Positions 1,905-45,913 of a stretch of 64,000 bases of DNA are shown piece by piece. The DNA is from Synechococcus sp. UW140 (GTDB lineage: Bacteria; Bacteroidota; Ignavibacteria; UBA10030; UBA8401). Both the position numbers and the translations under genes were made by a program. How positions within the stretch are numbered: the stretch's first letter is position 1; every line of letters begins with the position of its first letter. The DNA is taken from contig CALRIY020000003.1 of the NCBI GenBank assembly GCA_943364975.1, positions 18,387 to 82,386 of the forward strand. The letters run 5' to 3'. Under the pieces are notes generated by a model that ran no database searches, was not told the DNA's origin, and saw only the letters and a list, made by a program, of their open reading frames with translations.

Positions 1905-2945
1905 CTACACCGCCGGTTCCTGCTGGCTGATGCAGTGGAGTGTTCCGAGTCCCCATACCAGGTCCACGCAGTCGATGCCGATCACGGCACGGTCCGGGAA
2001 CTGTGCCTGGATGAAGTTGAGCGCTTTCAGGTCGTTCGGATGATTGAACACCGGCACGATCACAAATCCGTTGCCGATCAGAAAGTTCGCGTAACTGGCC
2101 GGGAGTCTCTGACCGTCGTACGCAACATACCCCGGCATCGGCAGTTCGACGATGGTGAACGGCTTGTTGTCCTGATCGGTCAGCGTGCGGAGAAGGTGCA
2201 GATTCTCCTGAAGGATCGCATAGTTCTCATCCTGCGGATCCTCTTCCACGCAGGTGACGATCGTTGTCGGATTGACGAAGCGGGAAAGATCATCGATGTG
2301 TCCGTCCGTATCGTCGCCGACGATCCCGTCATTCAGCCAGAGGATCTTTTCCTGCCCGTAATACTCTTTCAGGAATGTTTCGATCTGTTCCTGGTTCAGG
2401 TTCGGATTGCGGTTCTCGTTCAGCAGACATGCTTTCGTGGTGAGCAGACATCCTTTGCCGTTCACTTCGATGGAGCCCCCCTCCATCACGATACCGGGAT
2501 AGAAGACGGGAATATTATACTGCTCGGCGATCTTCGTCGGCACGATGTCATCCAGATCGAACGGCGGATATTTTCCGCCCCACGCGTTGTATCCCCAGTC
2601 CACGATCGCCAGTTTGTCCTTTGCGTTCGGATTTACGACAAATGCCGGACCGTGATCGCGGCACCATGCGTCATTGGTGGGGATGCGGTACAGCGTGAAC
2701 CTGTCCTCGGGAACGCCGGCAAGCGTCAGACGCGAGGTGACATCGTCGAACATCTCGTCATCCTTCACATTGATGTTCACATGCTGGAAGCGTGCGATGG
2801 TCTTCACGATGTTCGTATAGACGTGCGGGACCGGTTCGAATTTATCGGGCCAGGATTCCAGTTTGTGCGCCCAGCTGAGCCACGTCGCTTTTTGATTTTC
2901 CCATTCTGCGGGGAAACGGTAGCCGAGTTGTTTTGGTGTCTTCAT
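1905..2945 (-). CDS. aguA: agmatine deiminase
   Basis: ORF-track entry 1905..3410 trimmed to ATG 2945 (MKTPKQLGYRFPAEWENQ...). Family blocks WCRDHGP, GGSIEVNGKG and DGHIDD are present, with the C-terminal catalytic Cys in GTLHCISQQ. Adjacent to aguB. Confidence 0.9.
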   Translation of the reverse strand: MKTPKQLGYRFPAEWENQKATWLSWAHKLESWPDKFEPVPHVYTNIVKTIARFQHVNINVKDDEMFDDVTSRLTLAGVPEDRFTLYRIPTNDAWCRDHGPAFVVNPNAKDKLAIVDWGYNAWGGKYPPFDLDDIVPTKIAEQYNIPVFYPGIVMEGGSIEVNGKGCLLTTKACLLNENRNPNLNQEQIETFLKEYYGQEKILWLNDGIVGDDTDGHIDDLSRFVNPTTIVTCVEEDPQDENYAILQENLHLLRTLTDQDNKPFTIVELPMPGYVAYDGQRLPASYANFLIGNGFVIVPVFNHPNDLKALNFIQAQFPDRAVIGIDCVDLVWGLGTLHCISQQEPAV

Positions 2946-3013: not shown

Positions 3014-3889
3014 TTAATCGATAAATCGTTTGGTAATATCGGAATATGCGTCGATGCGTCTGTCGCGGAGGAAGGGCCAGTGAACGCGCGTGCTGTTGGC
3101 TCTGCCAAGATCCACAGTGACCACATTCACCTCTTCCTTGTCGTGCGATGCTTTGAAGAGGATCTCTCCCTGATTCCCGGCAACGAATGAACCGCCCCAG
3201 AATGTCTGGTTCCCTTCGTGTCCCACGCGGTTCACCGAAACAACGGGAATGCCGTTCGCAATGGCGTGGGAACGCTGGATCGTTTCCCAGGAATCGTGCT
3301 GGATCTTGTTCACAGCCGGATCCTCGCCGTCCGCCCAGCCGATGGCGGTGGGATAGAAGAGGATCTCCGCGCCGGTCAGCGCCGTCAGCCGCGCTGCTTC
3401 CGGATACCACTGGTCCCAGCAGATGAGCACGCCGAGTCTGCCGAATTTTGTGGGGAACGATTTGAATCCTAGATCGCCCGGAGTGAAATAGAATTTTTCG
3501 TAGTACGCCGGATCGTCGGGAATGTGCATCTTGCGGTATTTCCCGAGGTAAGAACCATCCGCATCGATCACCGCCGTGGTATTATGATAGATCCCTTCCG
3601 TCCGCTTCTCAAACAGCGAGGCAATGATCACTACCCCTAGCTCTTTCGCAAGCGGCTGAAGGATATCGGTCGTTTTTCCGGGGATGGATTCTGCCAATTG
3701 GAACGGAGCATAATCTTCCTTATCGCAAAAATAGAGCGAGGTGAAGAGCTCCTGCAGACAGACGATGTTCGCCCCTTTGCCCGCGGCTTCGCGGATCCCG
3801 GCGGCGGCTTTCGCAGTGTTGGATGCGGCATCGCTTGTGCAGGACATCTGCACAAGTCCGATATGGACATTACGGTGATTGCTCATCAT
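3014..3889 (-). CDS. aguB: N-carbamoylputrescine amidase (nitrilase superfamily)
   Basis: ORF-track entry 3014..4060 trimmed to ATG 3889 (MMSNHRNVHIGLVQM...). Shows the CN-hydrolase E/K/C context (CLQELF, YRKMHIP, VLICWDQWYPE). The start overlaps the stop of the upstream receiver gene (ATGATGA). Confidence 0.9.
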   Translation of the reverse strand: MMSNHRNVHIGLVQMSCTSDAASNTAKAAAGIREAAGKGANIVCLQELFTSLYFCDKEDYAPFQLAESIPGKTTDILQPLAKELGVVIIASLFEKRTEGIYHNTTAVIDADGSYLGKYRKMHIPDDPAYYEKFYFTPGDLGFKSFPTKFGRLGVLICWDQWYPEAARLTALTGAEILFYPTAIGWADGEDPAVNKIQHDSWETIQRSHAIANGIPVVSVNRVGHEGNQTFWGGSFVAGNQGEILFKASHDKEEVNVVTVDLGRANSTRVHWPFLRDRRIDAYSDITKRFID

Positions 3890-4287: not shown

Positions 4288-5520
4288 CTACGCTTTTCCG
4301 AAACAGATGGTCGCATTAGTTCCGCCGAAACCGAATCCGTTCGACAGGGCGTACCGGATCTCCCGCTTCCTGGCAACATTCGGCACATAATCCAGATCAC
4401 ACTCGGGATCGGGATTGTCCAGATTGATTGTGGGCGGGATGATCCCTTCTTTCAGCGCGAGGATCGTCAATGCCGCTTCCACCGCACCGGCAGCGCCGAG
4501 CAGATGGCCGTGCATGGATTTGGTGGAACTGATCATCATCTTCTTTGCATGATCCCCGAAGAGACGCTTGATCGCTTTGGTCTCGGCCACATCACCGAGT
4601 CCTGTGGAAGTTCCGTGCGCATTCACATAATCGATATCTTCCGGTTTCAGTCCGGCGGACTTCACCGCCAGCTTCATCGCCCGCATCGCACCGTCGCCAT
4701 CCTCCGGAGGAGCGGTGAAATGGAACGCATCGGCGGTCATTCCCACGCCGAGGATGCGTCCGTAGATCTTCGCGCCCCGTTTCTTCGCATGTTCTTCTTC
4801 TTCAATAACGAATGCGCCGGCCCCTTCGCCGAGGACGAATCCGTCCCGGTCCTTGTCGAACGGACGGGAAGCGCGGTGCGGTTCGTCGTTCCGTTTGCTC
4901 ATCGCGCGCGCGGAACAGAATCCCGCCACGCCGATCTCGGTGATGGAAGCTTCCGCACCGCCGACGATCATGGCATCCACTTCGCCCCGCTGGATCGCGT
5001 GGTATCCGTCCGCAATGGCGTGATTGCTTGTTGCACAGGCGGAGACGACGCCGTAATTCAATCCTTTGGCACCGACACGGATCGCCAGAAGACCGGAGAC
5101 CATATTGATGATCACCGACGGGATGAAGAACGGAGAGACCTGTTTCGGTCCGCCCGCTTCCAGTTTCACGGAGGTGTGGCTGATACCGATCAGTCCCCCG
5201 ACACCCGAACCGATGATGATCCCGATACGTTCGGCATTCTCCGGAGTGATCGTGAGTCCTGAATCCTCCACGGCATCCAGACCTGCGCCGATGCCGAATT
5301 GAACGCAGAGATCCCACCGGCTGACCTCTTTCGCATCAAAGTACTTTTTGGGATCGAATCCCTTCACTTCTGCAGCGATCTGCGTAACAAAACGCTCTTT
5401 CTCAAATTTGGTAATGTATCCGACTCCGGACTTCCCGGCGATCGCGCTGTTCCACGATTCCTGCACGGTCAGTCCGAGGGGGGAGATCAGACCCATTCCT
5501 GTAATAACGACATTTCGCAT
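4288..5520 (-). CDS. fabF: beta-ketoacyl-ACP synthase II
   Basis: ORF trimmed to ATG 5520 (MRNVVITGMGLISPLG...). Active-site Cys in SACATS, His in NAHGTST and GHLLGAAG, C-terminal NGFGFGGTNA. Confidence 0.92.
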   Translation of the reverse strand: MRNVVITGMGLISPLGLTVQESWNSAIAGKSGVGYITKFEKERFVTQIAAEVKGFDPKKYFDAKEVSRWDLCVQFGIGAGLDAVEDSGLTITPENAERIGIIIGSGVGGLIGISHTSVKLEAGGPKQVSPFFIPSVIINMVSGLLAIRVGAKGLNYGVVSACATSNHAIADGYHAIQRGEVDAMIVGGAEASITEIGVAGFCSARAMSKRNDEPHRASRPFDKDRDGFVLGEGAGAFVIEEEEHAKKRGAKIYGRILGVGMTADAFHFTAPPEDGDGAMRAMKLAVKSAGLKPEDIDYVNAHGTSTGLGDVAETKAIKRLFGDHAKKMMISSTKSMHGHLLGAAGAVEAALTILALKEGIIPPTINLDNPDPECDLDYVPNVARKREIRYALSNGFGFGGTNATICFGKA

Positions 5521-5870: not shown

Positions 5871-7181
5871 ATGTCAACCCAACAAAAAAACCGATCGGCG
5901 GGGATCAGCGAATCATTCAAGGATTTTTTTCACAGCAGCACTTCCGGGGGGATCGTTCTTCTGGTTTGCACTGCTGCCGCACTGATCTGGGCGAATTCCC
6001 CGTGGTCCGAACAGTATTTTTCGCTGTGGGAGAAACATTTTTCCATTGGTATCGGCAGTGCCGTTCTCTCCAAAACGCTGCTGCATTGGATCAACGACGG
6101 ACTGATGGTGATCTTCTTCTTCTTTGTTGGATTGGAGATCAAACGGGAGATCCTTGTCGGCGAACTCTCGTCATTGAAGAAAGCGCTGCTCCCCATTCTT
6201 GCTGCCATCGGCGGAATGATCGGTCCTGCACTCATTTATCTCCTCTTCAATCCGGCCGGCTCCGACACGGCGCACGGATGGGGGATCCCGATGGCGACCG
6301 ATATCGCATTTGCCCTTGGCATCCTTGCACTGCTCGGCGACAAAGTGCCGCCGGGACTCAAGATCTTCCTTGCCGCACTCGCCATTGCGGATGATATGGG
6401 TGCGGTGCTCGTTATTGCATTCTTCTATACCAGTGAACTGTCATTGACAATGCTGGCGATCGGCGGAGGATTCATTCTGCTGCTTATTGCCGCCAACAGA
6501 TTCAATGTCCGTTCCTCTGCGATCTATACGATCCTCGGCATCGGTCTTTGGTTCTGCTTCCTGAAATCCGGCATCCATGCAACCATCGCCGGAGTACTGC
6601 TGGCGATGACCATCCCGGTGAGCAAAAAGATCAATAAGGAACAATTCGTCGAGGAGACGATCGGTACACTGCGGGAGCTGAAAAACAATACGGATCGGCA
6701 AAGCGTCAACGAATTGATCCACAAAGTGGCATCCTTAAGCGAAGAGGTACAGTCGCCGCTCCACCGGTTCGAGCACGCCCTCCATCCGTTCGTCTCATTC
6801 CTGATAATGCCGGTGTTCGCGATCGCGAATGCCGGTGTGAAGATCGAGGGAAATGTCATTGATGCACTGATGTCCCCGGTCGGTCTCGGCGTTGCCGTTG
6901 GCTTGATCGCCGGAAAGCAGATCGGCATCTTTTCGTTCGTCTGGATCGCCGTGAAGACAAAGACCGCCGCTCTGCCGGAGAACGTCTCGTGGGGAATGAT
7001 CTACGGAACGACGTGGCTCTGTGCGATCGGATTCACCATGGCAATCTTCATTGCCAGTCTTGCCTTTCCAACGGAAGAACCGCTCATCATCAGCAAGATC
7101 GCCATCCTCTTTGCCTCTGCTCTTTCGGCGGTGACCGGACTCATCATCCTGTCGCAGATGAAATACCGCGCACCGGAATAA
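5871..7181 (+). CDS. nhaA: Na+/H+ antiporter NhaA
   Basis: 436 aa. NhaA blocks WINDGLMVIFFFFVGLEIKRE, GWGIPMATDIAFALG and LAIADDMGAV. About 12 TM segments. Confidence 0.92.
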   Translation: MSTQQKNRSAGISESFKDFFHSSTSGGIVLLVCTAAALIWANSPWSEQYFSLWEKHFSIGIGSAVLSKTLLHWINDGLMVIFFFFVGLEIKREILVGELSSLKKALLPILAAIGGMIGPALIYLLFNPAGSDTAHGWGIPMATDIAFALGILALLGDKVPPGLKIFLAALAIADDMGAVLVIAFFYTSELSLTMLAIGGGFILLLIAANRFNVRSSAIYTILGIGLWFCFLKSGIHATIAGVLLAMTIPVSKKINKEQFVEETIGTLRELKNNTDRQSVNELIHKVASLSEEVQSPLHRFEHALHPFVSFLIMPVFAIANAGVKIEGNVIDALMSPVGLGVAVGLIAGKQIGIFSFVWIAVKTKTAALPENVSWGMIYGTTWLCAIGFTMAIFIASLAFPTEEPLIISKIAILFASALSAVTGLIILSQMKYRAPE

Positions 7182-7188
7182 ATAAAAA

Positions 7189-7211
7189 CGGCCGTTCATA
7201 ATGAACGGCCG
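7189..7211. terminator. hairpin between convergent nhaA and the Cys/His-repeat gene
   Basis: CGGCCGTTCAT-a-ATGAACGGCCG. The T-run follows on the minus strand (TTTTTATTT), so it fits best as the terminator of the 7240..7671 gene. Confidence 0.65.
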
Positions 7212-7239
7212 CACCGTGTCCGGCGGAAAGATAACGCTG

Positions 7240-7671
7240 TTATTGCGGTTTGCCGCTTTTCTTCATCTCGTCCTTCTTCATCCCCTGCTTGGCATGCATC
7301 TCACACATTTTTTCTTTGGTGCAGTGCGAACATTCCATCGCTTGTTTTTCTGACTCCGCTTTGGCATGCATCTCACATAGTTTATCGTTCGTACAGTGCG
7401 CACACATCTTCGCATCTGAACCGGATTTCTTTTCCATCACCTGCTTCGAATGCATCTCGCACAGTGTATCCTTCGTACAATGCGCACACGCTGCTCCATC
7501 TTTCGTCATTTCTTTCTTCATTCCCTCTTTTGCCGCTCCCTCATGTTTCATCTCATGCTTCTTTTCTGTTTTCATTTCCTCTTTCTTTTCCGCAACCTGT
7601 GCGGAGAGAAGGCTGAAACCGAAACAGAAGAGCGCTGTGAACATGGTAATTTTTGTGACTGCAGACCGCAT
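7240..7671 (-). CDS. secreted Lys/Glu/Met-rich protein with three C-x-H-C-T-x4-C-E-M-H repeats (unknown family, putative metal/redox binding)
   Basis: 143 aa. AAGGAG lies 6 nt upstream of the ATG. Signal peptide MRSAVTKITMFTALFCFGFSLLSAQ. Repeats are CAHCTKDTLCEMHS, CAHCTNDKLCEMHA and CSHCTKEKMCEMHA. A terminator hairpin follows at 7189..7211. Confidence 0.75.
   Translation of the reverse strand: MRSAVTKITMFTALFCFGFSLLSAQVAEKKEEMKTEKKHEMKHEGAAKEGMKKEMTKDGAACAHCTKDTLCEMHSKQVMEKKSGSDAKMCAHCTNDKLCEMHAKAESEKQAMECSHCTKEKMCEMHAKQGMKKDEMKKSGKPQ
7291..7488 (-). repeat. three in-frame 42-nt repeats encoding the C-x-H-C-T-x4-C-E-M-H unit
   Basis: Units at 7291..7332, 7363..7404 and 7447..7488. The shared plus-strand core is G(C/A)ATGCATCTC(A/G)CA...CA(G/A)TGCG(A/C)ACA. 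Confidence 0.9.
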
Positions 7672-7748
7672 GGTGAACTCCTTAATATAATTCGATAGAT
7701 CATCGTTGATGGAATGGTGTACGTGAACAGACTCTGTCTCCGAAACAT

Positions 7749-8267
7749 TTACGGATGTGCGTCATTCATTCTGGTGTAATCGATGCCGACGCCGTGGCAG
7801 CCGATGCATCCCGATCCTTTATTGGTAACGGGATACGTCGCCGTGCCGGAGGGAGACGTTTCCGCCCAGACCCATCCGTTCGCATCGGCATTCTTGTCAT
7901 TCCTTTTCTTAAAGAGGAACACATAGGTGGTGAGCACGTTGCCGGTGTAGAGTTCTTTGACGATCAGAGAGGAATCGGGAAACACCGTTCCGCTTTTCAC
8001 TTTCCCGTTCGCATCGAGAGAGTTGGCAGCGATAGTATTGTACCGGGTCCGCAGTTTTGCATCCGGATGCCCGGAGTTTCCCCCTTTCAGGATCGTGTCA
8101 GGAGAGTTCTTATAAAAGACGAATCCGGTGACGTTTTTGCCGAGCTGATACAGCTGCGATTCGGTGGTGGTGGATGCACCGGGAACCGCCGGAGTTGCCG
8201 GGGAATCTTCCTCATTGCAACCCGAGAGGATAAAAATTGACAGAACGAGCAGAACGGTATTTCTCAC
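7749..8267 (-). CDS. cytochrome P460-like haem lipoprotein
   Basis: ORF trimmed to GTG 8267, preceded by AGGAGAAAACCGC. Lipoprotein signal LLVLSIFILSGC. Family-like blocks SGHPDAKLRTRYN, FPDSSLIVKE and NGWVWAE, plus the C-terminal haem c site CIGCH. Confidence 0.8.
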   Translation of the reverse strand: MRNTVLLVLSIFILSGCNEEDSPATPAVPGASTTTESQLYQLGKNVTGFVFYKNSPDTILKGGNSGHPDAKLRTRYNTIAANSLDANGKVKSGTVFPDSSLIVKELYTGNVLTTYVFLFKKRNDKNADANGWVWAETSPSGTATYPVTNKGSGCIGCHGVGIDYTRMNDAHP

Positions 8268-8317: not shown

Positions 8318-8336
8318 GTATCACAGAACTATCACG
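8318..8336 (-). promoter_or_regulatory. candidate response-regulator box (direct repeat TATCAC-N5-TATCAC) upstream of the P460-like gene
   Basis: Plus strand GTATCACAGAACTATCACG, 17/19 identical to 10701..10719. 11-bp periodicity as in OmpR/PhoB-type boxes. It lies in the 75-nt gap between the HK stop and the P460-like GTG. Confidence 0.45.
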
Positions 8337-8342
8337 CACAGA

Positions 8343-9833
8343 TCAATTCACTGTGATGTTCTCCGTTGGGGAATACACCGGAAGCGAGAAGGAGAATGCC
8401 GTTCCTTCGTTCTTGACACTCGAAACGGCAATGGAGATCCCGTGCACTTCCAGGATCTTCTTGACGATCGCCAAGCCGAGTCCGGCACCGTCATTCCGGA
8501 ACATATTTTTCTGACTCCCTTTGTTGTACCGGCCGAAGATCAGCGGAATATCCTCCTGCGCGATCCCCGCTCCGGTATCCGCAACTCGCACTTCCACAGT
8601 TCGCTCCGCCGGACGAAGATCGATCGACACGGTGCCGCCGGCGGGAGTGAATTTGACGGCGTTGTCAGTCAGATTCTGGATCACCCGGTCGATCATCGCG
8701 ATATCCGCAACCACCAGCGGAAGATCGTGCGGGATCCGGCACTGCAGACGGATCCCTTTCTCTTCGGTGATGAGCAGATACTTTTGCGAGATATCCTGCA
8801 CCAGCTCCGAAAGTGAGAACGGTTCGGGTTCCGGCTTCGTTTGTTTCGCCTCCAGCTTGGAGAGTTCGAACAGCTCTTCCACCAGCCTGCGCAGCCGGTC
8901 TGTGGAGGAGAGAACGGTCTTCAGATATTTTTCCCGTTCTTCCGGATCCAGCGTGCCGGATTTGATCAGCAGTGTTTCGATGTATCCGTGAATGGTCGCC
9001 AGCGGCGTCCGCAGATCGTGAGAGACATTCGCCACCAGTTCACGGCGCAGATTGTCCATAGATTTCATCTCATCGAGATTCCGGACGATGGTATCGGCCA
9101 TTTCGTTGAAGGAGGTCGCCAATTCCGTCAATTCTCCGGACGAAGAAAAACGGATCCGCGCCTGATGATTCCCCTTCTGAAAATCCCGCACAGTGCTGAT
9201 GATGGTACGGAGATTCCGTGTAATGAACAGCAGCGAGATCAATCCGATCAGCGCCGCGGCGATGAGCGTGATGGTCATGGCCCGCGTACCGATCGTAAGG
9301 ATGTAACTGCCGGCGAGCATCTTAAAATTATTGTCAAACTCCTCGCTGCCGAGGATCACATAGAGATATCCGATCACGCGCTGACCGTCCTTGATCTCCG
9401 CCGCGGAAAAGGTCTTCTCTCCCTTCACCATCTTCGGATCGTCACCCATGACAAATCCGGGTCCTTTCTGCGTGACGAACCGTTTCACCGGACCGATCGA
9501 GACCGATGCGCGGCAGATGCCGGTGTTCGTAGGACAATGGGAAAGGACCGTTCCTGCAGTATCCAGCACATACACTTCAATGCTCGGGTTGAACAGTTTC
9601 TGGATCGTGTAGATCTCCTCGAGCCGGGATGAATCCAGCTTGTGATCCACCACCGGCTGATAATGACTCAGCAGCCGCTGAGCGATGGGAATGCTCAGAC
9701 GCTGGTTCGCTTCCTGGAAATACATCTCTGCAGAAAAGACGATAAAGTAGATATAGACCGCCGAGAGCACGATCAGCAGCGCAAGGAATGTTGCGGAGAT
9801 CTTCCAGTATAATGAATTGAAGAATTTTTTCAT
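8343..9833 (-). CDS. sensor histidine kinase (periplasmic sensor, HAMP, HisKA, HATPase_c)
   Basis: 496 aa. Two TM segments flank a ~150-aa periplasmic domain. H-box VSHDLRTPL; N/G boxes DNAVKFTP, DTGAGI and GAGLGLAIV. Confidence 0.9.
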   Translation of the reverse strand: MKKFFNSLYWKISATFLALLIVLSAVYIYFIVFSAEMYFQEANQRLSIPIAQRLLSHYQPVVDHKLDSSRLEEIYTIQKLFNPSIEVYVLDTAGTVLSHCPTNTGICRASVSIGPVKRFVTQKGPGFVMGDDPKMVKGEKTFSAAEIKDGQRVIGYLYVILGSEEFDNNFKMLAGSYILTIGTRAMTITLIAAALIGLISLLFITRNLRTIISTVRDFQKGNHQARIRFSSSGELTELATSFNEMADTIVRNLDEMKSMDNLRRELVANVSHDLRTPLATIHGYIETLLIKSGTLDPEEREKYLKTVLSSTDRLRRLVEELFELSKLEAKQTKPEPEPFSLSELVQDISQKYLLITEEKGIRLQCRIPHDLPLVVADIAMIDRVIQNLTDNAVKFTPAGGTVSIDLRPAERTVEVRVADTGAGIAQEDIPLIFGRYNKGSQKNMFRNDGAGLGLAIVKKILEVHGISIAVSSVKNEGTAFSFSLPVYSPTENITVN

Positions 9834-9877: not shown

Positions 9878-10594
9878 CTACCGTACGACTTCTTCCAATT
9901 CGGCGAATCGGTACCCCACTCCCCATGCGGTCAGGATATATTTCGGTTTGGACATATCCTGTTCGATCTTGGCGCGGAGCCTGTTGATATGCGAATTCAC
10001 CGTATGGTCGTATCCGTTGAACTGATATCCCCACACGAGTTCCAGCAATTGTTCCCGCGTGTAGGTCTTGCCGGGATGTGTCGCAAACAGCAGCAGCAGA
10101 TCGAATTCCTTCGCCGTCAGCTCGAGACGCTTTCCTTTCAGCTGCACCTTCCTCCGCTCACGATCGATCTCCAGATCACCGAAGTTGATCACCGCAGAAT
10201 TGTCGGATGCAGCGGACCCATTCCGCAGTGCTTCGGTCCGCCGGAAGATCGCTTTCACCCGTGCGATGAACTCCCGCACGCCGAACGGCTTCGTCAGATA
10301 ATCATCCGCACCGACCTCCAGTCCGAGCACTTTGTCCAGCTCTTCGGATTTTGCGGTCAGCATCAGGATCGGCGTGTTGTTCTTGTCTGCGCGGACACGC
10401 CGGCAGACTTCCAGACCGTCCATCCCGGGAAGCATCAGGTCCAGCACGATCAGATCGATGCTCCCCTTCTGCGTCAGCGCATATCCCTTTTCGCCGTCGA
10501 TCGCCGTGGTCACCCGGCAGTGAAGATCCTTCAGATGGATCTTCAGCAGTTCGGTGATATCCTTGTCATCTTCGATCACCAATACATGTTTCAT
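9878..10594 (-). CDS. OmpR/PhoB-family DNA-binding response regulator
   Basis: 238 aa. Receiver domain (IEDD, LDLMLPGMDG, LTAKS, LTKPF) plus a winged-helix output (LTAKEFDLLLLF, VDSHINRLR-like NSHINRLRAKI, WGVGYRF). Confidence 0.92.
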   Translation of the reverse strand: MKHVLVIEDDKDITELLKIHLKDLHCRVTTAIDGEKGYALTQKGSIDLIVLDLMLPGMDGLEVCRRVRADKNNTPILMLTAKSEELDKVLGLEVGADDYLTKPFGVREFIARVKAIFRRTEALRNGSAASDNSAVINFGDLEIDRERRKVQLKGKRLELTAKEFDLLLLFATHPGKTYTREQLLELVWGYQFNGYDHTVNSHINRLRAKIEQDMSKPKYILTAWGVGYRFAELEEVVR

Positions 10595-10700: not shown

Positions 10701-10719
10701 GTATCACAAAATTATCACG
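10701..10719 (-). promoter_or_regulatory. candidate response-regulator box (direct repeat TATCAC-N5-TATCAC) upstream of the RR-HK operon
   Basis: Plus strand GTATCACAAAATTATCACG. It lies between the upstream terminator (10724..10758) and the RR start (10594). Confidence 0.45.
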
Positions 10720-10783: not shown

Positions 10784-11578
10784 TCACTCTTTTTCGTGTT
10801 CGGTGTCGTTCTCCATGAAGGACTGGAGTTTCTCTCCCAGCCATCCGCCGACGAGCGACAGGATGAATCCGCCGATGAGCAGTTCCACCACATACATCAT
10901 TTCGTCCATCATCAGCAGCGAGAATGAATAGAGGAAGAGTGCATTCAGCACAACGCTCAGTACGCCGGCGATACCGGCTTCCATGATGGTGACTCCCGGC
11001 GAGAAATATCCGACCAGCAGACCGGCCAGCAGGAAACTTGCACCGAGCGCGATCACGATTCCGCCCATGCCGAATTTCAGAAGGGCGAATCCGCCGATCA
11101 CAAAGAATGCATTGAAGATGAATGCGATCACCGTTCCGGCGATGATCCAGCCCCATTGCAGCTTCCCTTTTTTGTCATCTTCCAGTTCTTTCACAAGCTC
11201 TTCCGGCGTGATCTGGATCTGTTCGCCGACCCATCCGCCGATCAATCCCAGGATCAGTCCGATCACCGGTGCGGCGATCATTTCCATAGTGGAGAATGTC
11301 ATTCCGAAGCCGAATGCCAGGATGTTACCGACGAGCAGCAGCGTGACGAAACCGCCGATCGCAGGTTCTTTCAGCGTATACCCTTCGGATTTGAAACCGA
11401 TGATGATACCCATGACGACAAACCCCAGCAGCGACATGAATGTCGGGATAAGGGGAATGTGGAATGTTTTCGCGATCATGAGATAAAGTGATAGGCAGAG
11501 CGCAGTCCCGGCCAGGATTCCGGTAATGATCCACTTCCACTCCAATCCTCCTTTGGATGCGGTGGCTTCTGTCGTCAT
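10784..11578 (-). CDS. integral membrane protein of unknown function, internally duplicated (2 x 4 TM)
   Basis: 264 aa with AAGGAG upstream. The halves align: LEWKWIITGILAG / LQWGWIIAGTVIA and ILGLIGGWVGEQIQ / ILSLVGGWLGEKLQ. Its own terminator is at 10724..10758. Confidence 0.75.
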   Translation of the reverse strand: MTTEATASKGGLEWKWIITGILAGTALCLSLYLMIAKTFHIPLIPTFMSLLGFVVMGIIIGFKSEGYTLKEPAIGGFVTLLLVGNILAFGFGMTFSTMEMIAAPVIGLILGLIGGWVGEQIQITPEELVKELEDDKKGKLQWGWIIAGTVIAFIFNAFFVIGGFALLKFGMGGIVIALGASFLLAGLLVGYFSPGVTIMEAGIAGVLSVVLNALFLYSFSLLMMDEMMYVVELLIGGFILSLVGGWLGEKLQSFMENDTEHEKE

Positions 11579-15374: not shown

Positions 15375-15493
15375 ATTCTGTTTTAAATCCTCCGTGATCT
15401 CCGTGGTGAAAAGAGACGAGGTGTCATCGTTGACTTTTCGTTCTGATTTTGGTAACCTATGGGCCAGGGGAGCACCGCACACACCGCACGACC

Positions 15494-18232
15494 ATGGAAT
15501 CACACGACCTACATATTCAGGGGATCCGTCAGGCACTGACGGAAGAGATCACTGCATTATCACAAACACCGAACTCGTCCGTTCTCAGCAACGGTACGCG
15601 GGTTGCGCTGTTTGGGGATTCTGCGGTCTATCGTTTTGAGATCCCCGAGAATTATTTCTTCACTCCGTCCGCTTCCGTACGCTGTTCGTTCGGAACGACC
15701 GTCCGTTTTTCCCTGACCGCTGTTGTTGCCGATATTCAGAGCCAGTTCCTGTATCTGCTTTTCCCATGCAACGCCGGAGAGATCGTACCGGAGATGGACT
15801 GCCAGTGGAATCCGGCGGAGGGCGCGGAACATCTGAATACCTGCTGGAACTCGTTCGCGGAGAACACCATCGCCCACGACCTCTTTGAACGGAAATTCCG
15901 GGAGAACTCATCTCCGGCAAAGAAAGATGCGGTCTTCCCCTCCTACTTCACCGCTTCGCAGCAGCAGGCGATCAAACAATCGCTGAACCGGAAGATCTCG
16001 TTCGTGATCGGCGAACGGAAACGGGGAAAGACCGGCGTGGCATCATCGCTGGTGCTGAACTCGCTCCGCGAAGGGAAACGGATCCTGTATCTCGCCGGCA
16101 GTTCCGGAAGTCTGCACGGTTGTCTGAAAGAGATCACTGAGGTGAATCCGGTCGCTGTGGAAGAATCCACCGCGGTGCTGAACGAAGGACTGTATCTTCG
16201 CTCCGAACTCTCCCCCGACCTTTTTCCCCGGGCCGCTTCGCTGGACGAAGAGACCAGGAACGGATTGACAAAACTCTTCTCCGTGATCAATGCCGAGCAT
16301 GACTATACGCGCATCCATGAACTGCAGGAGAAACTGAAGGAGAAGGAACAGCAGATCACCGATGCCAATGAAGAGGTCCGCGCCGCTAAGGAAGAAGCGG
16401 CCAGGATGCAGAATGCATCCATGATCGAACGGATGCGCCTGGGAAAGAAAGCGCTCGACGATGCGCAGAATGCCGTGAAGGAGAAACAGGCGCTGGCGGA
16501 CAGGCTGAATCAGCATCTCTCCGCACTGACCAAAGAATTGTTCAAGAAAGAGACATCCGTACCGGTATTGCTTCGGGAGAAGAAGAAGATCGAACAGTTT
16601 GCCGCGATGACGTTCCCTCCGGTGAACCGGACGGAGATCGAATCTGCCATTCAGTCCAGACAATGTCTCGCAACGACCGTCAATAATGCCGTCACTCTGT
16701 CGCCGCAGCTCCTCGCTTCCTTCGATGTTGTCTGCATTGACGATGCCCACGCATTGGGCCTTGCGCAGTTCTTCTTCTTTGCTTCATTGGCGAAGGAACG
16801 GTGTTTCATCCTTGCCGATGTCACCGAACAGCCGCCGCAGTCCGCTTCGCAGCTCGATGCCGCACGGACGTGGCTGCAGAAGAATTATTTTGCCTATTAT
16901 CAGAACGAGGACAGCGAGTACTACCGGTTCATGATCAATCTGCTGCCGCATGACGTGGTGAGCGAATTGACGCTGGACGAAACCTCCACGAACATTTTCG
17001 AAGCGTGTCTCCTCTCCGCGCTGGATGAGACGCCGATCCCTCCGGGTTCCAAAGGACGCATCTTCTTCATCAACACCGAGGATCAGCGTGCCACCTCGCC
17101 CCAGTTCATCGGAAAGAAAAAGATCCTGCCGTTCAACGAAGCGAATGCAAAAAAAGTGGCGGACTGTGTGAAACACGCGCTGCTGAACGGCGCCACCGCT
17201 GTCTCCGACATCCTTGTGGTTGCACCGCCGAGCGGACAGACGATGTTCCTTCGCGAGCATCTGAAAGCGCATCAGCTGGGCGAAGTGGAAGTGACACCGC
17301 TCGGTGCGATCCGTCTCTGCTCCAAACGCGCCGTCATCTTCGATCTGACCGCCGCCGGCATCGACTTCACGCTCCGTTCGCTGGACGACAAGAAGATCGG
17401 ACTGGTGACCGTTGCCGATACGTTCAACACATTGTTCTCCACCGTCACGGACGATCTGTACGTTGTCGGCGATCTCGCACACTTCCGTACGAAGTACAAA
17501 GGACGGTTCATCGCAACACTGCTGGAGAAGATCGTCAGCGTCAAGGAGAATGAAGCAGCGGTGATCAGCGCCACCCGGAGATTCGACGATCTGACGAATG
17601 AAGTCCGGACCAAAGTGATCACTGCAACCGAAGAGGAAAAACTTTCGCCGGAGTACAAGAGCAAGCTGGAACAGTCCAAACCGAGCGCCATGGATTCGGC
17701 GAAAACCGGATCAAGCAATACGGTGGCAGCCGCGGACCGGAAACTGAAGCAGGAGATCCGTCTCGCCTCGCTGCGAGTACTGGCGCGCCGCGAGATGATC
17801 AATCTGATCGCACGGTATCTCGGAGCTTTCCCGCTCTACAAGACGACCGTCGAAACACAGAAATTTTCCGCCGTCATTCCGGAGTACGACTGCGAGAATG
17901 AGAATGATTTCAAGAATGTGATGGATATGTGGAATCTGCTCATCTATGAGACGAGCGACGTGCAGAAAGCGGAGCATCCGCTCTTCCAGAAAGCGAAAGT
18001 GGACTCCAAAGTGCCGATCGACCTTCAGCAGATCCATTCTTTCTACCATTCCGACCTCGAGATGGTGGTGGAAGAAGGAAAACACCGCCTCGCACAAAGC
18101 ATCCAAAAGATCTTTAACGACTGCATCGGCAAGAAACCGGTCACCCCGATCGAGTGGATGAACGCTTACATCGTTTTTTTGAACCGCATGTCCAAATACC
18201 TCGATACGATCATCAATCAGATCCGCGCGTAA
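15494..18232 (+). CDS. Upf1-like SF1 helicase homologue (AAA_11/AAA_12-type) with degenerate motifs, coiled-coil insert and unknown terminal domains
   Basis: ORF trimmed to ATG 15494 (MESHDLHIQG...). Walker A GERKRGKT (16010..16033). Motif II CIDDAH (16733..16750). Motif III-like FILADVTEQPP. Motif VI position reads VTVADTFNTLF, without Arg. Terminator at 18294..18324. Confidence 0.8.
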   Translation: MESHDLHIQGIRQALTEEITALSQTPNSSVLSNGTRVALFGDSAVYRFEIPENYFFTPSASVRCSFGTTVRFSLTAVVADIQSQFLYLLFPCNAGEIVPEMDCQWNPAEGAEHLNTCWNSFAENTIAHDLFERKFRENSSPAKKDAVFPSYFTASQQQAIKQSLNRKISFVIGERKRGKTGVASSLVLNSLREGKRILYLAGSSGSLHGCLKEITEVNPVAVEESTAVLNEGLYLRSELSPDLFPRAASLDEETRNGLTKLFSVINAEHDYTRIHELQEKLKEKEQQITDANEEVRAAKEEAARMQNASMIERMRLGKKALDDAQNAVKEKQALADRLNQHLSALTKELFKKETSVPVLLREKKKIEQFAAMTFPPVNRTEIESAIQSRQCLATTVNNAVTLSPQLLASFDVVCIDDAHALGLAQFFFFASLAKERCFILADVTEQPPQSASQLDAARTWLQKNYFAYYQNEDSEYYRFMINLLPHDVVSELTLDETSTNIFEACLLSALDETPIPPGSKGRIFFINTEDQRATSPQFIGKKKILPFNEANAKKVADCVKHALLNGATAVSDILVVAPPSGQTMFLREHLKAHQLGEVEVTPLGAIRLCSKRAVIFDLTAAGIDFTLRSLDDKKIGLVTVADTFNTLFSTVTDDLYVVGDLAHFRTKYKGRFIATLLEKIVSVKENEAAVISATRRFDDLTNEVRTKVITATEEEKLSPEYKSKLEQSKPSAMDSAKTGSSNTVAAADRKLKQEIRLASLRVLARREMINLIARYLGAFPLYKTTVETQKFSAVIPEYDCENENDFKNVMDMWNLLIYETSDVQKAEHPLFQKAKVDSKVPIDLQQIHSFYHSDLEMVVEEGKHRLAQSIQKIFNDCIGKKPVTPIEWMNAYIVFLNRMSKYLDTIINQIRA

Positions 18233-18608: not shown

Positions 18609-20591
18609 TCACTTTACAAGCGCCAGCTTTTTCACCGCCGAATATTTCCCAGCACTCATTTTCGCAAAATATGTTCCGGTTGAAAATGAAGAAGCGTTCC
18701 ACGTCATTGTATAACGTCCGACATCCATATCTTCGTCCACTAATGTCTCAAGCTCCCTTCCGGTGACATCGTATATTTTTAACGAAACGCGGCACCGCTC
18801 CGGTAATTGATAACTGATCGTTGTGGAAGGATTAAATGGATTGGGATAATTGTCCATACCAAATTCGAGCGGAATCATCTCATCCGGAACGCTCATGATC
18901 TGTGTCAGCTTCATCAGGACCCAGGCATCCGGATCGATCTTGTATGATGCGCCTGCAGGAATCGTAATATGGCCGATACCATTTGTCATGTTCACCCGCA
19001 GAGTGTCAGCACCAATTTGAACGTCTACCGGTAAGGAAAAAGGTACATTGTTCGGTGTTACCCACTGCAATGTGAGCATCGTGTCCACTTTGCTATACTG
19101 CAGTTCCGGAACTTTTGCCTGACGAAGATATACTGCAAAAAACCAATCCAGTGTTAGACCTGTGTGCTGCTCGGCGAGCCGAAGAATATCGTCCGTTGTT
19201 GCGTACCGGCATTGTTTTCCGTCGGTGAGTGTTTCCATGACAGAGTCGGGGTAGGCAATCTTTCTGTAAAGATCAAAGAATGTCTTATCGCCGAGATAAT
19301 GTCGAAGCGTGTGAAGGATCCAGGCGCCTTTAAAATAGATATCGTTCGATGAGAACATTTTGGCTGCTGTTGTCGCTTCCAGCGGTGCAACAGGTTTCGT
19401 ATTTAATATTTGCCGGCTAAGATCGAACATATAATTTTTATATTTTGTAACACCGAGAGTCCGCTCGACGAAGAGTGCCTCCATATATGTTGCGAATCCT
19501 TCGTGGATCCACACATCGCTCCAATCCTTGGCGGTAACAAGATTGCCCCACCATTCGTGTGCCAACTCGTGGAGATGGATATAATCAAACCCATAGGAAT
19601 TAAGTCGAAAATTGTTTCCATACGCAATAATCGTCTGGTGTTCCATTCCATAATATGGCGCGTCGGCTAGCCCATATTTCTCCGACCTGAAGGGGTAGGG
19701 ACCGCACACTTCTTCAAAGAACCGAAGATCTTTTAAGAATGTTGTTGAATATTGCTTTGCCTTTTCAACGTTATAGGGTAAAAACCAATATTCGCTCGGG
19801 ATCATCTCCCCTGTCACGCTCTGATATGTGATAGGTATTTTTTGATACGGCCCCAGATAAAATGTAATGGCGTAGTTACTGATCGGCTCGGAAACGTTCC
19901 AATGCAATGTTTTTGAACTTCCCCGCACAATTTCCTCAAGCAGACGTCCGTTTGATACGCATGTAAGAGACGCGGGAACGGTGAAATAGAGATCGACAGA
20001 ATCCGGTTCGTCGGAGGGATGGTCCTTGCACGGCCACCACATATCGGCACCTTCTGCTTCGCAAGCAACGCCAGCCCATATTTCTCCCGTCTTCGTATAT
20101 TTCCAGACAAACCCGGATTCCCATGGGGGATTCGATGCGACTTTCGGAACACCGTGATACCATACGGTCACAAAAATAGTGTCTTCTTTTTGCTGTACGG
20201 AAGGAAGGATGATCCACAGCCTGTCAGAATGTTGGCTGAATGGTAATGCTTTATTATTTGCCTGATATCCCTGCCACTTGACCGAATCCACAATAAAGTG
20301 AGAGCTTAGGTCCAGAACATATGTGCTTATCGTATCCATAACGAGGGAGCGGGAAAACAAATCCGCTCTAATTGACCGCGTGGTTGTGTCTATCGACAGG
20401 TTCAGTCTATAATAAAGCACATCATATGCCGCCTGCTCTCTGATGATAGGTCCGCCGGAATCCAGTGCTCGGTAAAAATGTTTTTCAAAATTCAGCTGGG
20501 CTTTCAGCATCACAATGTTCGCGATACAAAATAGTACTAAATATTTGAAATATCGAAACGTGCCATAATTTGCATTCATAGACCAACTCAT
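18609..20591 (-). CDS. M1-family zinc aminopeptidase with T9SS C-terminal sorting domain
   Basis: 660 aa. HELAHEWWGN-x18-E zinc site and YGMEHQ exopeptidase-type motif. C-terminus NYPNPFNPSTTISYQLP...KKLALVK. The start is 20591 or 20579. Confidence 0.88.
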   Translation of the reverse strand: MSWSMNANYGTFRYFKYLVLFCIANIVMLKAQLNFEKHFYRALDSGGPIIREQAAYDVLYYRLNLSIDTTTRSIRADLFSRSLVMDTISTYVLDLSSHFIVDSVKWQGYQANNKALPFSQHSDRLWIILPSVQQKEDTIFVTVWYHGVPKVASNPPWESGFVWKYTKTGEIWAGVACEAEGADMWWPCKDHPSDEPDSVDLYFTVPASLTCVSNGRLLEEIVRGSSKTLHWNVSEPISNYAITFYLGPYQKIPITYQSVTGEMIPSEYWFLPYNVEKAKQYSTTFLKDLRFFEEVCGPYPFRSEKYGLADAPYYGMEHQTIIAYGNNFRLNSYGFDYIHLHELAHEWWGNLVTAKDWSDVWIHEGFATYMEALFVERTLGVTKYKNYMFDLSRQILNTKPVAPLEATTAAKMFSSNDIYFKGAWILHTLRHYLGDKTFFDLYRKIAYPDSVMETLTDGKQCRYATTDDILRLAEQHTGLTLDWFFAVYLRQAKVPELQYSKVDTMLTLQWVTPNNVPFSLPVDVQIGADTLRVNMTNGIGHITIPAGASYKIDPDAWVLMKLTQIMSVPDEMIPLEFGMDNYPNPFNPSTTISYQLPERCRVSLKIYDVTGRELETLVDEDMDVGRYTMTWNASSFSTGTYFAKMSAGKYSAVKKLALVK

Positions 20592-20967: not shown

Positions 20968-22314
20968 GTGGATGAACAATCCGGGAAGAAGGCCAAAAGA
21001 GCAGGAGTTATGGCAGAAGAAACACCCGAGCAGCAGCCGGAACAACAGCCGGAGCCGCAGAATACCAACAATCCCAAACGGGATAACCCCTTCCGCAGAA
21101 AGAATTTCCGCGGAAAATACCCGCGCCCCCAGCGCAAACCGGAATCCGAATTCCCCTCCCTAGAAAAAGTGGATGAGCTTCCGGCAACAATATTCGGTGA
21201 AGAAGCGGTCACCGCAGAGAAACAACCGCAGGAAGAGACACCGGCACAGCCCCCGGTGCAGCAGAACCGTCCTCAGCATCAGCAGAGACAACCGCAGCAG
21301 TCAAGATCCCAGCAGCAGCCCCGTCCGCAGCGCGAACCGAGAGAACAACGTGAACCTCGCGAACAACAGCAGCGAAATTCCGGCGGAGGCATCACCGTTT
21401 CCGTGGTGATCCCGCTCCTGAACGAAGAGGAATCACTGCGCGATCTGCATGAACAGCTGAAGAATTCCCTCTCCCGCGTGAACGGGAATTATGAATTGAT
21501 CTTTGTGGATGACGGCTCGACCGACAATTCCTTCAAAGTGCTCCGCGAACTGAAATCACGCAACCCGCGCGTGAAAGCGATCCGCTTCCGCCGCAACTAC
21601 GGCAAGAGCGCGGCGCTCCAGGTAGGATTCCAAAAAGCGCAGGGGGAATTCGTCATCACAATGGATGCGGACCTGCAGGACGATCCGGCAGAGATCTCGA
21701 ACATTCTGAAAGAACTCCGCGGCGGCTACGACGTCGTCTCCGGCTGGAAGAAGAAACGGAAAGATCCTCTCGGCAAGACCATCCCGTCCAAATTCTTCAA
21801 CTTCGTCACCGCGAAGGTCACCGGCATCAACATTCACGACTTCAACTGCGGACTCAAAGGATACCGGAACGATGTGGTGAAGAGTGTGAACGTGTACGGC
21901 GAACTGCACCGCTACATTCCCGCACTGGCGCACTGGCTCGGTTTCCGTGTCGGCGAGACTGTGGTGAACCACCGTCCACGCAAGTACGGAAAGACTAAAT
22001 TCGGCATGGCGCGGTACTCGCGCGGATTCCTGGATCTGCTCACCGTCGTCTTCACGACACGCTACGTCACCCGTCCGCTCCACTTGTTCGGCGGCTGGGG
22101 GATCCTCTCCACGCTCGCGGGACTCATCACTAGCGCGTGGCTTGTTTATGAAAAATACATCAACGGTCAGCCGTTGAGCAACCGTCCTCTCTTCATCGTT
22201 GCGCTGATCATGATCATTGTCGGCGTGCAGTTCGTCTCCATGGGACTGCTCGGTGAACTGATCACGAAGAATCAGCAGCTGGAAAAAGAGTATTCCATCC
22301 GTGAAGAGCTGTAA
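20968..22314 (+). CDS. GT2 glycosyltransferase (GtrB/polyprenyl-phosphate type) with ~130-aa Gln/Pro/Glu/Arg-rich N-terminal extension
   Basis: 448 aa. GT-A blocks VVIPLLNEEESL, FVDDGSTDNS and MDADLQDDP, with two C-terminal TM helices. The start is uncertain (GTG 20968 or ATG 21010). Confidence 0.85.
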   Translation: MDEQSGKKAKRAGVMAEETPEQQPEQQPEPQNTNNPKRDNPFRRKNFRGKYPRPQRKPESEFPSLEKVDELPATIFGEEAVTAEKQPQEETPAQPPVQQNRPQHQQRQPQQSRSQQQPRPQREPREQREPREQQQRNSGGGITVSVVIPLLNEEESLRDLHEQLKNSLSRVNGNYELIFVDDGSTDNSFKVLRELKSRNPRVKAIRFRRNYGKSAALQVGFQKAQGEFVITMDADLQDDPAEISNILKELRGGYDVVSGWKKKRKDPLGKTIPSKFFNFVTAKVTGINIHDFNCGLKGYRNDVVKSVNVYGELHRYIPALAHWLGFRVGETVVNHRPRKYGKTKFGMARYSRGFLDLLTVVFTTRYVTRPLHLFGGWGILSTLAGLITSAWLVYEKYINGQPLSNRPLFIVALIMIIVGVQFVSMGLLGELITKNQQLEKEYSIREEL

Positions 22315-23457: not shown

Positions 23458-23469
23458 AAGTCTATGCCA

Positions 23470-23538
23470 GTCATGCCTCGGCTCCGCTCGGCATGACAAA
23501 GCGAGGGTGTCATACTGAGCGAAGCCGAAGTATGACAC
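23470..23538. repeat. pair of GTCAT...ATGAC-type hairpins
   Basis: GTCATGCC-tcggctccgctc-GGCATGAC (23470..23497) and GTGTCATA-ctgagcgaagccgaag-TATGACAC (23507..23538). Confidence 0.75.
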
Positions 23539-23561
23539 TCGATTCACACAAGATAGATCCA

Positions 23562-35765: not shown

Positions 35766-35973
35766 ACGATTTGGAGTTGGTGATTGATATTGACAGGTTG
35801 GAATGCAGGAAAGTAACGAAAGATCTTTCGCAAAGCAATCCGCGATGAGGGTCAACAATTGTTTACCAACGGACTGCCGTCACTGCTTTCTCCGTTCACT
35901 CTATAATAGAATTATAGTATATTACACCGATCAGCATTATTGACGGTCCAATGTGAATTTGAACCTATCCCTT

Positions 35974-37023: not shown

Positions 37024-37198
37024 ACAATTGTATGTTTCAGGTTTCATGAATTGAGAAGAGAATGGAAGAGGGATATCAAAAATTGAACTGGATGATATTT
37101 CAAACTATTTAATGGAACCGGATCCATGCTATCACACCACTATTGTTATATCGTCACTTCCATCTGAACCGTGAAACCTGAACCTTGAATCTGCACTT

Positions 37199-43615: not shown

Positions 43616-43692
43616 GATCCGAAGGGTCTGTACAACTGTTGATTGAAAACATTCCTCCTTTAATGTATATTCATCTTGAAGAAGGGATTTTT

Positions 43693-45729: not shown

Positions 45730-45913
45730 TATCTGCCCGCACCTGCTGCACAAACAGTCAGCTGCTCGTAAAGCGAGCACACTTTCATAGAAAAATTCTT
45801 TTTTTGGATATTCTCTGCGGCTTTGTGTGAAATTATCACAAAGAATGTTCACTGCCGTTTTTCCCTCCCCAATGCATTGGTCTTGGGGATTTTTATTGTA
45901 CATTTATCAACGT

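Follow-up and report, generated by a model that had tools for sequence, protein, structure and literature searches.

A secreted Cys/His/Met-repeat protein encoded behind a P460-like lipoprotein in Ignavibacteria: a candidate periplasmic soft-metal buffer

Results

The repeat gene and its product

Within a 64-kb stretch of contig CALRIY020000003.1 (positions 18,387 to 82,386; assembly GCA_943364975.1, filed as Synechococcus sp. UW140 and assigned by GTDB to the Ignavibacteria), hereafter the window, a minus-strand gene at 7240..7671 encodes a predicted secreted protein that carries three copies of a Cys/His/Met-rich unit. By a modest balance of the evidence, we read this repeat protein as a gene-encoded periplasmic buffer for soft metals, probably Cu(I), that would be induced by envelope stress. 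The units recur with conserved Cys, Met and His in a rare family; the gene lies behind a lipoprotein gene that shares a direct-repeat promoter box with an adjacent two-component system, and in sister genomes the same place is taken by a gene cluster of the bufferin type.

The product has 143 residues (MRSAVTKITMFTALFCFGFSLLSAQVAEKKEEMKTEKKHEMKHEGAAKEGMKKEMTKDGAACAHCTKDTLCEMHSKQVMEKKSGSDAKMCAHCTNDKLCEMHAKAESEKQAMECSHCTKEKMCEMHAKQGMKKDEMKKSGKPQ). A ribosome-binding site, AAGGAG, stands 6 nucleotides (nt) before the ATG (7678..7683, minus strand), and the stop codon occupies 7240-7242. Residues 1-24 (7600..7671) form a predicted Sec-type signal peptide; by eye it consists of a basic n-region, MRSAVTK, a hydrophobic core and a closing LLSA before the Gln, with cleavage between LSA and Q, and the twin-arginine motif is absent. 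The Lys/Glu/Met/His-rich linker that follows (residues 25-61, 7489..7599) is predicted to be disordered, with an AlphaFold2 predicted local distance difference test score (pLDDT) below 50 at residues 20-57. Translation, a repeat finder and a motif pattern then agreed on three units, all on the minus strand: unit 1, CAHCTKDTLCEMHS (residues 62-75, 7447..7488), unit 2, CAHCTNDKLCEMHA (residues 90-103, 7363..7404), and unit 3, CSHCTKEKMCEMHA (residues 114-127, 7291..7332). The repeat finder returned them as three in-register 60-nt copies with 72-77% identity. The back-translated pattern C-x-H-C-T-x4-C-E-M-H matched the window three times, each time on the minus strand within this gene, against an expectation of 0.00 matches from 100 shuffles of the window. 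Past residue 25 all nine Cys and six of the eight His sit in the units, and the composition is dominated by Lys (22%), Glu (14%) and Met (11%).

An earlier, sequence-only reading of this DNA had reported the reading frame with its ribosome-binding site and signal peptide, the linker, the three units at these same coordinates and the distribution of Cys and His over them. Translation, sequence features, composition, the pattern and repeat searches and the residue count bore out each of these points, and all its statements about the sequence were correct.

Just past the stop codon, an intrinsic-terminator-like hairpin on the minus strand (7188..7212; an 11-pair stem with 7 G-C pairs, followed by the T-run TTTTTATTTAT) closes the operon in the direction 7212->7188 and also faces nhaA, which lies downstream in convergent orientation. 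A plus-strand open reading frame at 7250..7690 overlaps the gene and is its shadow.

Relatives and selection

Searches of different design converged on a small family. A word-indexed search of 5.8 billion clusters returned one relative, P0001 (69% identical; proteins and loci are referred to below by P and L numbers), five came from an exhaustive HMMER scan in which a profile of the repeat region was run against 1.84 billion representatives, and a profile search returned eleven. A DNA-pattern scan of one genome per species in 185,579 species gave nine true loci, all in metagenome-assembled genomes (MAGs) labelled Ignavibacteriae, Bacteroidota or Chitinophagaceae, and one chance match without a matching reading frame (L020, Micrarchaeota). 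The total comes to about 17 relatives, all from Ignavibacteria/Bacteroidota MAGs; GCA_049317705.1 and GCA_943369855.1 are examples of genomes with the gene. They are 78-182 residues long and share a signal peptide, a low-complexity linker and one to five units, single-unit members included; the hydrophobic segment closes with [SA]-A-Q in all 17 family members. No match was found by tblastn in 72,556 plasmids, and a scan of metagenome contigs re-found only the UBA8401-type locus. The rarity and narrow taxonomic range of the family limit its general importance.

Pfam and NCBIfam scans of the repeat protein gave no model at cutoff; sub-threshold hits to WRC, Hok, Zn_ribbon_IS1595, TatA and MXKDX were noise, and a faint precomputed Pfam match to Opy2 on the relative P0006 was judged to be noise as well. 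There was neither a significant sequence match nor a fold match in the PDB, and the earlier reading, which had recognised no named family, still holds.

Conservation was strongest in the units. In the orthologue P0001, which is 69-71% identical, the frame, the signal peptide and 9/9 Cys are retained. The overall dN/dS between the two was 0.30, with 0.13 for the units and 0.45 for the remainder of the mature protein. Where the flanking genes of two genomes are 72-95% identical, the repeat protein reaches only 38-71% identity and its unit number shifts, which points to the units, and not a global fold, as the target of selection. Small size and low-complexity composition are all that speaks for a chance reading frame or a non-functional repeat relic; we regard this reading, which has next to no probability, as already refuted by the conservation data, given three exact motif matches where none is expected, a ribosome-binding site and a terminator, 17 relatives that keep the signal peptide and the Cys, and the low dN/dS of the units.

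The repeat motif across the family

Motif statistics were taken from 34 distinct units in the 17 proteins. Cys at positions 1 and 10 and Met at position 12 are invariant (34/34 each), and Cys at position 4 (33/34), Asp or Glu at position 7 (33/34), Lys at position 15 (32/34) and His at position 13 (31/34) are nearly so. Position 3 is His in 19 units, Met in 11, Lys in 3 and Asn in one, position 5 is Thr in 27 and never His, and position 11 is variable (E, D, A, P, G, T or L). The family core is C-x2-C-x5-C-x-M-H, set in a 15-residue module, C-x-[H/M]-C-T-x-D/E-K-x-C-x-M-H-x-K. The C-x-H-C-T-x4-C-E-M-H motif proposed by the earlier reading is exact for the window protein; family-wide, its CxHC His and its CEMH Glu turned out to be lineage-specific. 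That reading had also separated the motif from the haem-c pattern CXXCH, rightly so: since the residue after the second Cys is His in 0/34 units, the unit is not a haem-c site.

His and Met, which alternate at position 3, are interchangeable ligands of Cu(I) and Ag(I). Many units are also preceded by Met at position -2, so that they read M-x-C-x-x-C (for example EMACPHC and AMECSHC), the classic motif of Cu(I) chaperones. Every Cys of the mature proteins lies inside a unit, and the Cys count is a multiple of three in 16/17 proteins; in L016 alone it is 14, spread over 5 units, because one of them has Gly at C4. Metal ligation accounts for an odd number of Cys per unit more readily than structural disulfides do.

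The family falls into two subfamilies. Subfamily A, which includes the window protein, has a Lys/Glu/Met-rich linker and a unit spacing of 24-35 residues. Subfamily B (L009, L011, L013, L015, L016 and L019) combines a linker rich in Pro, Ala and Val with 2-5 repeats of strictly 22 residues, C-K-M-C-T-K-D-K-K-C-x-M-H-x-K-G-E-M-K-E-A-D, with Met at position 3 and a degenerate last unit.

Predicted structure

An AlphaFold2 model of the repeat protein was built with a 12-sequence alignment. Block means of pLDDT are about 67-81 over the unit regions, and residues 20-57 are disordered. For every unit the prediction shows C-x-H-C-T-x4 as a loop and C-E-M-H as the start of a helix, the three helices spanning residues 72-84, 100-113 and 124-138. 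In this model a CxxC knuckle would stand beside a C-x2-H in the first helical turn, which resembles the layout of small metal-binding knuckles. Foldseek found no match to the model in the PDB, and a PDB profile search with the protein returned only Elf1 zinc ribbons, which are not significant (E about 0.4).

The lipoprotein upstream

The gene before the repeat gene encodes a 172-residue lipoprotein (7749..8267, minus strand) with the lipobox LSGC and, at the C-terminus, the haem-c motif CIGCH. We place its start at GTG 8267, behind an AAGGAG ribosome-binding site, and it is called with 172 residues in L003 also; the mechanical start at GTG 8339 (196 residues) is overextended, and the added 5' part holds a regulatory box. 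Residues C16, K103, K119, C153, C156 and H157 are invariant in 43 homologues, and its AlphaFold2 model reaches a pLDDT of 84.8. Neither Foldseek with this model (no match at E <= 0.001) nor phmmer found anything in the PDB. The earlier reading had called this neighbour P460-like. It does have a CXXCH motif and passes the cutoff of Cytochrome_P460 (PF16694), but at 27.9 bits against a cutoff of 27 the assignment is marginal, and precomputed P460 matches on its homologues are mostly labelled "weak" or "faint". P460/c'-beta haem proteins carry out nitric oxide (NO) and hydroxylamine chemistry (PMC10318465). More than 300 homologues of the lipoprotein occur in Ignavibacteriales, Bacteroidota and Gemmatimonadota, always beside a signalling system, either an OmpR-type pair, an NtrC-type pair (L024/L025) or an extracytoplasmic function (ECF) sigma factor with its anti-sigma factor (L010, L021 and L026).

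One operon slot, alternative cargo

The slot between the lipoprotein gene and fabF carries a bufferin-type cluster, the repeat protein or nothing. In L021 and L023 the kinase (71-78%), regulator (81-84%) and lipoprotein (61-71% identical to those of the window) are followed by an unknown protein of 219-224 residues, a Cys-repeat precursor, an MNIO, an HvfC/DUF2063 protein and DoxX. The precursor has 103-112 residues, a signal peptide and a body built of KDGCKGKDGCSGK repeats (Cys-repeat KDGCKG). With 342.5 bits, the MNIO exceeds the cutoff of 310 for NF050167, the BufB "bufferin maturase"; precursors of the L021/L023 type stay below the cutoffs of all curated precursor models, scoring 20.6 bits for BufA2, whose cutoff is 60. 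A gene set of MNIO, HvfC/DUF2063, DoxX and precursor defines bufferin-type metallophores, which are peptides made on the ribosome and modified after translation (RiPPs) (PMC11626156, PMC12452194, PMC11252979), and bufferins themselves leave the cytoplasm by the Sec route, chelate copper in the periplasm and are induced under metal stress (PMC11626156, PMC12452194). The P460-like lipoprotein heads a bufferin-type operon in three Ignavibacteriales MAG loci (L021, 6001-9975; L023, 6001-9983; L028, 220-4336), the arrangement in L028 being the same. The lipoproteins of L026 (6001-6513) and L028 (220-732; P0051) are 100% identical; in L026 fabF follows directly and the slot is empty, and in L028 the cluster is complete. 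The cargo shows presence/absence polymorphism here, the two carriers being very close relatives.

The two kinds of cargo did not occur together. Searched by tblastn, the MNIO, HvfC and DoxX of L021 gave nothing in the window or in any locus with the repeat gene, nor was the repeat gene found in the MNIO-bearing loci; among the loci read, each kind of cargo excludes the other. They are also not homologous: hhalign of the repeat family with the sister-locus precursors gave a probability of 3% and aligned the signal peptide only. The main text of a survey of the MNIO landscape has 0 mentions of "P460" (PMC12452194), and the association of a P460-like lipoprotein with bufferin-type operons seems undescribed there. 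Literature searches that joined P460 with bufferin, or with two-component systems and cysteine-rich proteins, returned nothing relevant.

In L010 the lipoprotein and the repeat protein are encoded as a pair, and the genes before them, in place of the two-component system, are for an ECF sigma factor, an anti-sigma factor with HxxxCxxC and a DUF6789 protein. This indicates that the tightest link is that of the lipoprotein with the repeat protein. The module itself (L010, 2436-3771; L021, 4587-5913) precedes the lipoprotein and consists of the ECF sigma factor, a short H-x3-C-x2-C anti-sigma factor in which no membrane segment is obvious, and a membrane protein of the DUF6789 type; in L021 it occurs together with the two-component system.

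A further small gene was seen near the slot. Just upstream of fabF, and downstream of the repeat gene or the bufferin cluster, lie genes for Cys-free signal-peptide proteins of 74-78 residues, rich in Lys, Glu, His and Met and similar to the linker of the repeat protein (L007, 6008-6241; L010, 4815-5039; L021, 11184-11420; L012, about 2130-2240, minus strand). The window has no equivalent, and nhaA stands in its place.

The two-component system and a direct-repeat box

Upstream of the lipoprotein gene, and on the same strand, lie genes for a sensor histidine kinase (8343..9833) with two transmembrane segments, a periplasmic domain and HAMP-HisKA-HATPase domains, and for an OmpR/PhoB-type response regulator (9878..10594; Pfam Response_reg and Trans_reg_C). 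Both missed the cutoffs of the heavy-metal subfamilies (TIGR01386/TIGR01387, CusRS/SilRS/CopRS), the kinase with 150.5 against 292.55 bits and the regulator with 178.7 against 279.2 bits, and they are a generic OmpR/PhoB-type pair. An alignment of six orthologues showed in the periplasmic domain of the kinase (residues about 97-107) a conserved S-H-C-P-(T/S)-N segment with a second Cys 6-7 residues on. This H-C...C patch may be a site of thiol or metal sensing.

Alignment of the intergenic regions across loci revealed a direct repeat, GTGATA-N5-GTGATA, followed 9 nt on by a TAT(C/G)TT hexamer. The window holds exactly two perfect copies, compared to about 0.008 expected by chance (12 specified bases, 128 kb, both strands), and both are on the minus strand. 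One, GTGATAGTTCTGTGATA (8319..8335), lies about 50 nt upstream of the lipoprotein start, with a third, degenerate half-site that reaches 8346 and a -10-like TATCTT hexamer 9 nt downstream. The other, GTGATAATTTTGTGATA (10702..10718), is followed by TATGTT and lies upstream of the regulator gene, where it suggests autoregulation. A box before the lipoprotein gene is also present in L004 (7323-7339), L005, L007/L008, L012 and L021, and one before the regulator gene in L005 (the two boxes of this locus being at 4687-4703 and 7295-7311), L007, L012 and L023. In L021 the exact box is immediately upstream of the lipoprotein gene (5929-5945); in L023 it stands before the regulator gene (3366-3382), and the lipoprotein gene is preceded only by GTGATG-N5-GTGACA, with two mismatches. 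The box was not found in loci without this two-component system, and L005, L007 and L012 have a degenerate extra box before the repeat gene.

An 11-bp-phased direct repeat in place of a -35 element is typical of OmpR/PhoB-type activators. From this arrangement we infer that the adjacent regulator drives, through the box, both its own operon and that of the lipoprotein and the repeat protein. Because the 77-nt gap between the latter two genes contains neither a box nor a terminator, the repeat gene is probably co-transcribed with the lipoprotein gene, with transcription ending at the 7212->7188 terminator. The sequence-only reading had placed the gene last in a cluster tied to a two-component system, which agrees with both the gene order and the shared box.

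Discussion

A working model

We envisage the repeat protein as a small, largely disordered, Sec-exported protein whose 15-residue modules would be its working parts. Each module would present a CxxC knuckle followed by a helix with C-x-M-H in its first turn, as in the predicted structure, and would gather three thiolates and a His (and Met) into a site for a soft or borderline metal, Cu(I) being the likeliest and Ag, Cd and Zn possible. The gene would be transcribed together with that of the c-haem lipoprotein from the GTGATA-N5-GTGATA promoter; the box would be bound by the adjacent OmpR-type regulator, itself driven by the kinase with its conserved periplasmic His-Cys...Cys patch. Once in the periplasm, the protein would soak up excess metal stoichiometrically, its capacity being tuned in evolution through the number of units (1-5). 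It would thereby do, unmodified, what the bufferin-type RiPP cluster does in the same slot of sister genomes.

The earlier reading had likened the protein to metal chaperones or sponges, an idea that now appears to have circumstantial comparative support from the shared slot, the varying copy number, the alternation of His and Met and the invariant Met12. A unit number that ranges from one to five, with single-unit proteins among the family, is expected of a stoichiometric binder and not of an enzyme. The three Cys per unit, the invariant Met-His, the M-x-C-x-x-C arrangement, the SilE-like Met/His-rich disorder and the H-C...C patch of the kinase can likewise be read as supporting a metal buffer.

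Several observations pull in the other direction. Cys in the oxidising periplasm might form disulfides. The model of the repeat protein has low confidence overall (pLDDT 59). Pfam revealed no CopA, CusCBA or multicopper oxidase beside the cassette, and we know of no P460-like haem protein among the components of copper systems or of described bufferin clusters. The genes of subfamily B (L009-L019) are solitary and in unrelated contexts, their heterogeneous neighbours including glyoxalase, HDOD and type IX secretion system (T9SS) cargo proteins and one multihaem cytochrome. Finally, a shared slot could reflect an insertion hot spot and not a shared function.

Other functions considered

The slot raises the question of whether the repeat protein is itself a bufferin-like RiPP precursor, with an MNIO or a different maturase, encoded at another place in the genome, that modifies its Cys, for example to thiooxazoles, the modified product then being the metallophore. 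With its predicted Sec signal peptide and Cys-containing repeat core it looks like a bufferin or oxazolin precursor, it occupies the slot that the bufferin-type cluster uses in sister genomes, and a sizeable share of bufferin precursors are unlinked to an MNIO gene (PMC12452194). We nevertheless consider this highly unlikely, given the lack of MNIO, HvfC and DoxX in the window and in the loci that bear the repeat gene, and the mutual exclusion of the two kinds of cargo in all loci read. The protein has no match to BufA1, BufA2 or HvfA at E <= 1 and none to DUF2282 in Pfam, the profile-profile comparison with the precursors of the neighbouring lineage aligned the signal peptide alone, and the invariant Met-His and the alternation of His with Met suggest that ligation is by the side chains themselves.

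The same residues could instead serve redox chemistry, the protein being a thiol/thioether scavenger of oxidants, electrophiles or NO, or a partner of the haem lipoprotein with cycling of its CxxC. The family consensus CPHC is the active-site tetrapeptide of DsbA, Met makes up 11% of the mature part, and anti-sigma factors of the ZAS type found in L010 and L021 are of a kind that senses thiol stress; the lipoprotein with which the gene would be co-transcribed belongs, if its assignment is right, to a P460/c'-beta group of NO and hydroxylamine chemistry (PMC10318465). We find this rather unlikely, as the model neither shows a thioredoxin fold nor matches any fold in the PDB, conservation of the third Cys, the Met and the His equals that of the CxxC pair, a variable copy number on a disordered scaffold suits a binder better than a catalyst, and the alternative cargo of the slot is a demonstrated copper chelator. 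Little probability also attaches to a role as a ZraP/CpxP-like periplasmic accessory or feedback regulator of the kinase, with the units as structural zinc knuckles or a sensing surface. Such a role would suit a small, helical or disordered, predicted periplasmic protein that is encoded with a two-component system and apparently controlled by it, and the predicted knuckle and helix resemble small zinc-finger modules, Elf1 zinc ribbons being the weak PDB matches. Those matches are not significant, however, the pair in L010 goes with an ECF sigma factor and no kinase, subfamily B lacks any regulator, and one to five units would be odd for a specific protein-protein interface.

Comparison with known systems

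Small exported metal-binding proteins under envelope-stress control are known already, and a soft-metal buffer of the kind we favour would join them. The bufferin, oxazolin and HvfA RiPPs (PMC11626156, PMC11252979, PMC12452194) are likewise small, Sec-exported, Cys-bearing periplasmic proteins, often with repeated Cys motifs, under stress regulation by an ECF sigma factor or a two-component system, and in the sister genomes their cluster stands behind the same haem lipoprotein and box. The repeat protein differs in that it shares no homology with them, has no MNIO, DUF2063 or DoxX gene nearby and brings His and Met ligands of its own in the motif, so that binding is predicted to use unmodified side chains. 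The SilE and PcoE sponges (PMC5008109) are similar in size (the SilE precursor has about 143 residues), Sec-exported, disordered and Met/His-rich, and are encoded beside a two-component system that also controls them, in their case a metal-responsive one; they bind Cu(I)/Ag(I) stoichiometrically, as is predicted here by analogy. They are Cys-free, however, with HxxM/MxxH motifs in place of three Cys per unit, have no detectable homology to the repeat protein, and the kinase and regulator beside the latter score below the heavy-metal cutoffs.

The Cu(I) sites of Atx1, CopZ and HMA domains share M-x-C-x-x-C with many units of the family. They belong to cytosolic proteins, whereas the repeat protein is predicted to be periplasmic, adds the invariant C-x-M-H, has no Pfam HMA match at E <= 1 and shows no ferredoxin-like beta-alpha-beta-beta-alpha-beta fold in its model. 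With zinc-knuckle and treble-clef fingers the units would share a C-P-x-C knuckle followed by C-x2-H in a helical turn, and thus a possible tetrahedral C3H site; the loop of five residues is far shorter, no sequence or fold match is significant, the predicted location is the periplasm, and the invariant Met and the alternation of His with Met are foreign to zinc fingers. MXKDX pentapeptide proteins (TIGR02953) are small as well, with a signal peptide and much Met, Lys and Asp/Glu, but they lack Cys units, and the repeat protein scores 13 bits against a cutoff of 41 (E = 0.077).

In the libraries and papers that were searched, we found no description of the motif, the family, the apparent interchange with bufferins or the haem lipoprotein that heads both operons. 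We put forward more tentatively, as a possibility short of an even chance, that C-x2-C-x5-C-x-M-H is a new, self-sufficient periplasmic metal site of three Cys, a His and a Met, carried in one to five copies by a disordered scaffold, and that in one Ignavibacteria lineage it displaced the enzyme-dependent bufferin pathway from a shared stress-controlled operon and works with the new haem lipoprotein. If so, it would be a natural non-homologous replacement of a modified peptide metallophore by an unmodified metalloprotein, bufferin-type RiPPs and plain Cys/His/Met proteins would be interchangeable outputs of one envelope-stress circuit, and the widespread, uncharacterised haem lipoprotein would gain a first functional handle. 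Should binding of Cu(I) or other soft metals be borne out, the modules would provide a compact, genetically encoded 15-residue metal-binding tag that needs no maturase; EMACPHCTKDKKCEMHAK is an example of a single-unit sequence for a stand-alone peptide. The GTGATA-N5-GTGATA repeat, as a defined candidate regulator box, would make the circuit directly testable.

Other features of the window and related loci

A Pfam survey of 20 other genes of the window revealed no copper-specific gene, and Rfam and tRNA scans of the whole window were empty. A resistance-nodulation-division pump at 35953-40285 lies 28 kb away and was judged unrelated. Beyond the regulator gene, the minus strand encodes at 10784-11578 a 264-residue multi-pass membrane protein without a Pfam or NCBIfam match; a strong terminator (10760->10730) stands between it and the regulator operon. 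Its position upstream of the regulator gene is syntenic in L005, L007 and L012, and not in L004 or L021. Among the subfamily B loci, the gene in L019 adjoins a multihaem cytochrome/cytochrome b fusion. Four large open reading frames of the window (524-927 residues; 15449-18232 and 45827-48073 on the plus strand, 21556-23562 and 329-1903 on the minus strand) have no Pfam match at E <= 1e-5. T9SS C-terminal sorting domains were found in the proteins encoded at 18609-20591, 43639-45729 and 49383-50813, which is consistent with a host of the Fibrobacteres-Chlorobi-Bacteroidetes (FCB) group.

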